Under the pieces are notes generated by a model, which was given only the letters and a program-made list of their open reading frames with translations, was not told the DNA's origin and searched no databases. From Candidatus Latescibacterota bacterium (GTDB lineage: Bacteria; Latescibacterota; UBA2968; UBA8231), in NCBI GenBank assembly GCA_965219385.1, contig CBDCNM010000002.1, positions 2,924,305-2,988,304 on the forward strand: a stretch of 64,000 nt of DNA, in the 5' to 3' direction. Below, one piece after another: positions 41,353 to 43,076 of this stretch. Position 1 is the stretch's first letter. Each line of letters starts with the position of its first letter. The position numbers were made by a program, and so were the translations under genes.

Positions 41353-41919
41353 ATGGATGCAGCCATAGGCATGATCGAGGTCGAAGGAGTGGCGGCTATC
41401 ATCGTGGCGGCCGATGCGGCGTGTAAGACCGCGGAGGTGGAATTGCTGGGCTGGGATTCCATTGGTGGTTTCACCACGGTTTTTTTCAGTGGATCTCTCG
41501 GCGACGTGAACGCCTCCCTGCGCAGCGGTGAGGCGGCGGCCAGGGGAGTCGTCGAAAGCGTAGTCGCCGCCTCTTTGCCCCATCCGGAGCCGGCCAGCCG
41601 CAACCATATTGCCTTTCCCATTGACCCCAATACAGAGGTCCGTTCCGGAGCCCTGGGATTGATCGAGACCAGGGGGTATGGCGTCCACGTCCCGACCAAC
41701 GACACCATGGTAAAGACCGCGGCCGTGGAGGTGCGCAATGTGCTCACCGTGCAGAATCGGGTGGTGTGTTCCCTGATTCAAGGCGAGGTCGGGGCCGTGC
41801 GCGAAGCCTTGGCCGTGGGCCGGGCCCAGGTCGAGAGCGGTGAGAATTTCCTCTGTTCCGCGCTCATCCCGCAGCCCGTACCCGAGGTGGTGCAGACCTT
41901 TGGTGGAGCGGGCAAGTGA
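41353..41919 (+). CDS. BMC shell protein with two divergent tandem BMC domains
   Basis: AIGMIEVEG..ADAACKTA and ALGLIETRG..DTMVKTA..GEVGAVREA..LIPQP. Confidence 0.9.
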   Translation: MDAAIGMIEVEGVAAIIVAADAACKTAEVELLGWDSIGGFTTVFFSGSLGDVNASLRSGEAAARGVVESVVAASLPHPEPASRNHIAFPIDPNTEVRSGALGLIETRGYGVHVPTNDTMVKTAAVEVRNVLTVQNRVVCSLIQGEVGAVREALAVGRAQVESGENFLCSALIPQPVPEVVQTFGGAGK

Positions 41920-43076
41920 TGGCCAGAGCTACAGGCATTCTCGAAACCCGCGGTATGGCGGCCCTGATCGGAGCCGCGGACGCCATGCTCAAAGCCGCGG
42001 ATGTGCGGATTTGCGGTCGTCACGGGGTGGGGTCCGGTTGGGTCACCGTGGTGGTGGAGGGCGATGTGGCTGCGGTGCAGATCGCGGTGGGAACGGGCCG
42101 GGAGGAGGCTAAAAAATACGGCGACCTGATCACTGCGGAAGTGATCGCCCGGCCCGAGGCGCGGGCCGTGGAAGCCATGCCGCACCGGGCCGCGGGGCCA
42201 GCCGCACCGATTTCTGGGGCCCAGGCTTTGGGCCTGCTGGAGACCCAGGGGCTGACCCCCCTGATCGCGGGGGCGGACGCCATGGTCAAGGCCGCGGCCG
42301 TGGAACCGAGCGGCTGGGCCTTCATCGGCGCGGCCCTTGCGCACCTGGTGGTGCGGGGGGATGTGGCCGCGGTGCGGGCCGCGGTGGAAGCTGGCCGGGG
42401 CGCGGCCGGGGCCGCGGGCGAGGTCCATTCTACTCTGGTGATTCCACAGCCCATGGAGGGCATCGGGTTGCTGCTGCCGGCGGCCCCGCCGGAGGCCGCG
42501 CCGGTTGCGGTCGGGGCCCTGGGCGTGCTGGAGACCACCGGTTATGTGGGCGCGGTGAGCGGCAGCGACGCCATGACCAAGGCCGCGGATGTGGAAATTA
42601 TAGGTTTGAAGATTGCCAGCGGCGGGCGGATCGCCGTGCTGGCGGCGGGCGGTCTGGACGATGTGCAGGCCGCTATCGGGGCCGGTTCCACCGCGGCCCA
42701 GAGGGCCGGGGAGTTGAACAGCGCCCGGGTTATTTCGCGCCCGGCGTCTGAAGTCATGGCCTGTTTTGGCGGGAGTGCCCCTGCCACGGGTCGCACCGCC
42801 GTGCCGGGCGAAGCCATGGGGTTGATCGAAACCCGCAGCACGGTCGCCCTGGTCAAGGCCGTGGACGAGATGCTGAAGGCGGCCGCGGTCAGGTACGAAG
42901 GCAGCTACAAGGTGGGTTACTTCCTGACCGCCAGCGTGGTGCGGGGGGATGTGGGCGCGGTGCAGGCGGCGCTGGACGTAGGCGCGACCACGGCGGTAAA
43001 ATACGGCGAGCTGGCCGCAGTGGATTTGATCCCCTACCCCTTCGCCGCTTTGGAAGAGCGCCTGCCGCATGATTAG
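41919..43076 (+). CDS. BMC shell protein with four tandem BMC domains
   Basis: Four G(I/L/V)(L/I)ET..D(A/E)M.KAA..G.(V/L)..V..A..I..P units joined by Pro/Ala linkers; TGATG coupling to upstream gene. Confidence 0.92.
   Translation: MARATGILETRGMAALIGAADAMLKAADVRICGRHGVGSGWVTVVVEGDVAAVQIAVGTGREEAKKYGDLITAEVIARPEARAVEAMPHRAAGPAAPISGAQALGLLETQGLTPLIAGADAMVKAAAVEPSGWAFIGAALAHLVVRGDVAAVRAAVEAGRGAAGAAGEVHSTLVIPQPMEGIGLLLPAAPPEAAPVAVGALGVLETTGYVGAVSGSDAMTKAADVEIIGLKIASGGRIAVLAAGGLDDVQAAIGAGSTAAQRAGELNSARVISRPASEVMACFGGSAPATGRTAVPGEAMGLIETRSTVALVKAVDEMLKAAAVRYEGSYKVGYFLTASVVRGDVGAVQAALDVGATTAVKYGELAAVDLIPYPFAALEERLPHD

Follow-up and report, generated by a model that had tools for sequence, protein, structure and literature searches.

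How does a BMC shell protein with four domains take its place in tiles of six? In the hexagonal tiles known so far, one or two domains recur around the ring, and every pore residue is therefore present three or six times. In a 64 000-nucleotide stretch of a Candidatus Latescibacterota genome (hereafter the window), the gene for a four-domain shell protein (D4) is coupled to that for a two-domain one (D2), and an earlier note on this DNA had inferred that both chains form one heteromeric tile. Our analysis supports that inference with a predicted 1:1 model that closes a six-domain ring. We consider it likely that D2 and D4 form an obligate 4+2 heterodimer, and that the resulting tile lacks symmetry and has a narrow, specialised pore.

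Genomic setting of the D2-D4 pair

The D2-D4 pair closes a metabolosome operon, in which the following features were identified:

35490-36390, + strand: three overlapping BMC-P genes (35490-35855, 35852-36121 and 36118-36390)
37418-38854, + strand: aldehyde dehydrogenase (PF00171), metabolosome core
38859-39155, + strand: BMC-P vertex protein (PF03319), the fourth BMC-P
39169-39867, + strand: PduL-type phosphotransacylase (PF06130), start inferred
39890-40468, + strand: P0003, a second two-domain BMC protein with canonical motifs, possible rival partner of D4
40465-40746, + strand: standard BMC-H with canonical motifs, likely the main facet protein
40858-41349, + strand: Cys-rich protein with seven Cys in its middle part and no Pfam match, start inferred
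41353-41919, + strand: D2, two-domain BMC shell protein of 188 aa, two PF00936 stretches (E 3e-35); domains A1 (about 41359-41607) and A2 (about 41647-41904)
41917-41921, + strand: TGATG, stop/start overlap of D2 and D4
41919-43076, + strand: D4, four-domain BMC shell protein of 385 aa, four PF00936 stretches (E 8e-75); domains B1 (about 41919-42185), B2 (42222-42479), B3 (42513-42767) and B4 (42810-43070)
43069-44175, + strand: FAD-dependent oxidoreductase (PF01266), overlapping the D4 stop

By its gene content the locus is of the MUF2 type that Sutter et al. described in 2021 (PMC8217296). Its main locus encodes both an aldehyde dehydrogenase and a phosphotransacylase (PF00171, PF06130), a BMC-P triplet is accompanied by one more such gene (four PF03319 genes), and the double and quadruple BMC-H fusions listed for MUF2 are D2 and D4. 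The satellite genes of the type were found elsewhere in this genome as a PF00596 class II aldolase beside a 93-aa BMC-H (G000:C1:999347-999874) and as a 153-aa BMC-H with a C-terminal extension (L168:3721-4182). The Cys-rich protein (40858-41349), already described for MUF2 loci (PMC8217296, in part), lies between BMC-H and BMC-Ts and has an N-terminal domain resembling that of the PF00701 aldolase of related loci.

The MUF2 proteins of that study, as far as its accessible parts name them, belong to the same families as D2 and D4, and the locus content matches. In the numbering of locus tags, the D4 relatives CME28_01110 and CME20_01420 stand next to the Ts_hazel entries CME28_01115 and CME20_01425, which identifies D2 with the Ts_hazel group and D4 with the quadruple fusion of MUF2 loci. 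In one sentence the supplement states that 'several organisms have' such 'quadruple linear fusions' in MUF2 (PMC8217296). Its accessible parts propose no strict linkage, partner, assembly, stoichiometry or pore, whereas here the pair was found in 83 of 168 genomes.

Several neighbours recur in related loci. A gene of the fumarylacetoacetate-hydrolase family (36424-37326, - strand) lies inside the shell operon, as it does in L035, L037, L038 and L039, and IspH (LytB; 34235-35509) overlaps the first BMC-P gene, a position that it also has in many related loci. Behind the FAD-dependent oxidoreductase comes a second DHDPS-family gene (44397-45338), which is divergent and is conserved behind most main loci. 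The canonical two-domain gene and BMC-H are duplicated in L031, L032 and L033, where D2-D4 is single. Towards the end of the window (52000-64000), G+C drops from about 0.62 to 0.46-0.54, and this stretch, which starts with an ORF that we take to be type I restriction subunit-like (53249-56440), suggests an acquired island.

Integrity of the two genes

At the junction the letters read ...AAG TGA TGG CC, the A of the D2 stop TGA (41917-41919) being also the A of the D4 ATG; an in-frame GTG lies upstream at 41916. The earlier note had described four complete BMC domains in 41919-43076, joined by this TGATG overlap to a two-domain gene, and both statements hold: D4 translates without a stop over 385 aa with four PF00936 stretches, and D2 contains two. 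The pore loops that it quoted were all located, in D4 at residues 36-40 (GVGSG), 135-139 (FIGAA), 232-236 (IASGG) and 331-335 (KVGYF), and in D2 at 35-40 (DSIGGF) and 131-136 (LTVQNR).

Sequence support for a single D4 ORF, which the note had wanted checked, came from runs X2 and X4, whose contigs cross both genes unbroken. These contigs (one each) span about 40745-43400 with 1 and 0 differing letters, respectively, and zero gaps; the runs represent two studies, either of which is possibly the source sample. A database search with D4 gave 438 matches, the best 120 of which were full-length (366-424 aa) at 57-81% identity. Named relatives are mostly Candidatus Latescibacterota or Gemmatimonadota. 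The gap-free contigs together with the full-length relatives rule out an assembly artefact as the origin of D4. Three short contigs of the RNA run X11, at a depth of only about 3, were too little to demonstrate transcription. Two related loci carry interrupted versions of D4. In L124 a lone stop separates B2 from B3 with no new start, a single case and a possible error. A frameshift between B3 and B4 splits the gene in L021 (4343-5546), where the B4 part opens with an ATG at the domain start; this is either an error or a natural 2+3+1 variant.

Linkage of D2 and D4

Ortholog-level counts across 168 genomes of the phylum placed D2 in 84 and D4 in 83, with the pair present across three families, although the relatedness of these genomes means that the counts do not represent many independent events. 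The two genome sets are identical except for G004, where D2 runs off a 2050-base contig. Co-occurrence of the two genes, another point that the earlier note had raised, proved to be complete from the side of D4, which was not seen without D2 in the 168 genomes or in 126 loci collected with D4 patterns. In 115 of these loci D2, whole or cut by the contig end, lies directly upstream of D4, and the other 11 have no upstream DNA.

Both genes were whole in 127 stretches (repeats included), equivalent to 89 distinct at 97% and 53 at 88%. Spacing between them ranged from -13 to +17 nt in 125 stretches and was 175 nt in two. Another shell gene stands near the pair in 88 of the 127, and 20 were too short to judge. 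In the remaining 19, where the sequence extends at least 4.5 kb upstream, the pair is the only shell component encoded. The pair thus moves as a unit away from the shell operon, and such relocation is informative. The D2-D4 system is real and conserved.

Directly behind D4, 116 of the 123 stretches long enough encode a class I aldolase of the DHDPS family, about 390 aa in length and extended at its N-terminus. The relocated cassettes carry it there too, and in most relatives its gene lies between D4 and the FAD-dependent oxidoreductase. The closest solved relative, among many DHDPS-family entries, is the 2-keto-3-deoxy-gluconate aldolase 4UXD (E 1e-38). The N-terminal 50 aa of the Cys-rich protein resemble the aldolase extension, with 33% identity over 49 aa (E 5e-7) to the following protein:

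L039:13563-14729: class I aldolase from a related locus, N-terminal domain of 50 aa

The window is among the 7 of 123 stretches in which the class I aldolase is missing behind D4, as it is in the closest relative (L097). No ortholog was detected in this genome (94% complete), where the best match reaches 31% as against 67-100% for orthologs. D2 is tied more tightly to D4 than the aldolase is.

Divergence of the six domains

Mean identity is 54-66% within a domain position versus 24-39% between positions, and each of the six positions forms its own clade in a quick tree (SH-aLRT 97-99). Loop and edge conservation was computed over the 89 distinct D2-D4 pairs. The pore loops read GWxSIGGFT (one residue short) in A1 and NVLTVHNRV in A2 of D2, and GRHGIGSGW in B1, GWAFIGGAL in B2, RLxIGSGGR in B3 and GxYKVGYFLT in B4 of D4, many positions being 90-100% conserved. 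Three of the loops in the window are local variants of the consensus FIGGA (G 98%), IGSGG (G 74%) and LTVHNR (H 89%).

Edge Asp, Lys and Arg residues have roles in shell tiling. Asp and Lys are kept at 99-100% in all six domains, and the Arg of the PRP motif is kept in B1 (72%) and B3 (83%), mostly replaced by Gln in A1, A2 and B2, and variable in B4. Judging from these residues, the loss of Arg from four of the six domains may weaken tiling. Spacing between domains is 96-103 aa at all three D4 junctions and 95-99 aa between A1 and A2, with no long linker anywhere. The faces that would meet between the chains are non-canonical: Y109 (100%) and H112 (86%) of A2 versus H35 (95%) and W41 (100%) of B1, and S307 (85%) and T308 (95%) of B4 versus a Thr of A1 (95%). 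Covariation (MI-APC, 89 pairs, Meff 39) gave zero signal at the proposed interchain joints and at the internal joints used as positive controls, so the test does not discriminate.

Predicted structures

AlphaFold2 placed the four domains of D4 rigidly (pLDDT 91, pTM 0.90), with lowest confidence in the linkers (pLDDT blocks of 65-80), and D2 was predicted with pLDDT 95 and pTM 0.92. In both proteins, adjacent domains can be superposed on 6NER, an in-plane tandem (TM by target 0.84-0.92) that is also the sole PDB sequence with E below 1e-20. This synthetic BMC-H tandem fusion is the best structural and sequence match, and consecutive domains have the same relative placing in our models; it is engineered from two copies of one domain and reportedly assembles into homo-oligomeric tiles.

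A 1:1 complex of D4 and D2 was predicted with a score of 0.86, whereas the best of three controls, all of them unrelated proteins rather than P0003 or BMC-H, scored 0.00. Of the reference cases, 116 of 157 solved complexes passed the same mark, as did 2 of 215 mismatched pairs; for the alignments used here these counts apply only roughly. Contact agreement between runs was at least 97% and partner pLDDT at least 89. D2 is predicted to contact B1 (residues 5-89) and B4 (306-363) of D4, so that in the model the six-domain ring closes in gene order. Residue 137 of B2 contacts D2 in the model although B2 is not its neighbour in the ring, which suggests loops meeting across a narrow centre. Because BMC hexamers are solved, the pass possibly reflects likeness to them. 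The predicted complex fits a 4+2 arrangement and does not imply a preference for D2 over P0003 or BMC-H.

Alternative arrangements

That last point matters for a reading in which D2 is an ordinary homotrimeric BMC-T(s), the ring of D4 is closed by P0003 or by two BMC-H (4+2' or 4+1+1), and the genes are linked only by regulation. P0003 and BMC-H are both encoded in the D4 operon, paralog-mixed hexamers are known from CcmK3/K4 (PMC6788708, accessible parts), and an acceptor Thr and an aromatic residue common to A1 and B1 leave a D2 homotrimer compatible with the sequence. However, it is with D2, not with P0003 or BMC-H, that D4 leaves the main locus (19 stretches), and the open faces of D4 are non-canonical and conserved (W41 and H35 in B1, S307 and T308 in B4), whereas P0003 and BMC-H are canonical. 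We regard this arrangement as improbable.

A 4+2 ring could also act away from the facet: it would then be an adaptor, soluble or capping the shell, with the class I aldolase or the Cys-rich protein as its cargo. The absence of the edge Arg from four of six domains and the travel of the D2-D4-aldolase cassette away from other shell genes would suit such a role, but edge Lys/Asp pairs are retained in all six domains, the shell operon still contains the gene pair in 88 of 127 stretches, and the gene pair is kept even in the absence of the aldolase, which makes an adaptor less probable still. Least probable of all is self-assembly of D4, either as three chains in a 12-domain double ring or as chains stapling adjacent tiles. 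Twelve domains would fill two rings, and confidence in the D4 model is lowest in the linkers (pLDDT blocks of 65-80). Yet the D4 spacings (96-103 aa) match that of A1-A2 (95-99 aa) and offer no longer linker for crossing between layers or tiles, and the pTM of 0.90, together with a model in which the same D2 touches B1 as well as B4, favours a single arc. Self-assembly also leaves the strict link to D2 unexplained.

Other domain combinations were observed alongside the pair. A clean six-domain fusion was not found in two weak searches (1 of 6566 longer candidates with D2, 3 of 8000 with a D2 alignment). The matches were two ordinary D4 proteins and P0273, which reads as a frameshifted sequence comprising D2 and the beginning of D4. 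The 90% identity cluster of P0095 contains both 382-aa D4 and 193-aa D2 proteins and may include a linking member with both (a fusion or a read-through error), although none was present among the 15 listed of its 111 members. All 12 of 12 proteins tested from a further group (P0128, P0130, P0132, P0134, P0135, P0138, P0139, P0141, P0149, P0156, P0163 and P0173; 286-308 aa) have three PF00936 domains each. These are not alternative splits of A1-B4, scoring at most 105 bits to the profiles and falling outside the clades bar one long-branch domain (quick tree). They form a separate class, not found in the literature searched, two copies of which could complete a tile (3x2).

Comparison with known shell tiles

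The BMC-T(s) proteins (PduT, 3N79/3PAC; Haliangium T1, 5DIH; and, by database naming, presumably CcmO) resemble D2 and D4 in being linear fusions of unpermuted PF00936 domains with six domains per tile. D2, with two such fused domains, agrees with the definition of the class, whereas D4 has four where the class has exactly two. Neither PduT nor Haliangium T1 could be superposed on our models of D2 and D4 when these were taken as whole tandems (rmsd about 15-16 Å), which suggests that in the models the domains run around the ring in the opposite order. BMC-T(s) are described as two-domain homotrimers with threefold symmetry, and the BMC Caller list, in its accessible part, includes no four-domain tile type (PMC9052549). 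The CcmK3/CcmK4 and CcmK1/K2 hetero-hexamers are like the proposed D2-D4 tile in that mixed BMC domains in one ring alter the pore, but their subunits are single-domain, of two kinds and of low or variable stoichiometry, whereas here the order of six domains is fixed by fusion (PMC6788708, accessible parts). Four-domain proteins are not mentioned in the accessible parts of Kamke 2014, Axen 2014 and PMC10853475. A 4+2 proposal was not found in the literature searched, which lay outside most subscription journals and bioRxiv supplements. The four-domain protein is thus already in print, and the new proposal is its predicted pairing with D2 as one tile.

Proposed tile and its role

We propose that the coupled genes would allow D2 and D4 to be made together and joined 1:1 into one hexagonal shell tile. 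Its ring would run A1-A2-B1-B2-B3-B4 and back to A1, with two interchain joints, B4 onto A1 and A2 onto B1. From the size of an ordinary hexamer and the edge lysines, we infer that the tile belongs to the facets of a metabolosome of MUF2 type. Standard BMC-H would be the main building block there and the tile a minor component, probably of low copy. Fusion fixes the domain order, so each pore loop and edge would be free to differ in sequence. The resulting pore would be narrow and without symmetry, lined by His, Arg, Lys, Tyr and Trp side chains in single copy.

As the likeliest purpose we tentatively suggest selective passage of an anionic metabolite destined for the class I aldolase, e.g. 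a 2-keto-3-deoxy sugar acid. The loss of this aldolase here weakens a pore made for it, a reading that stays viable because a class II aldolase remains. Next, and rather unlikely, the tile could present a unique face on which either the aldolase or the Cys-rich protein docks by the N-terminal domain common to both. We lean towards the more general view of a natural tile without rotational symmetry, an obligate two-chain ring of six different domains fixed in order, whose asymmetric pore or face would be matched to one metabolite or enzyme.

If true, D2-D4 would add a sixth or further class to the hexagonal tiles H, Hp, Ts, Tsp and Tdp. For engineering it would supply a natural framework whose pore and edge residues can each be altered singly, and with two genes in 1.7 kb it is readily testable. 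Six independent positions could shape a pore for one asymmetric molecule or provide one unique docking site, and the class I aldolase is a candidate signature enzyme of the uncharacterised MUF2 organelle. Together with the three-domain proteins, the pair would mean that any division of six domains among chains can serve in a shell.
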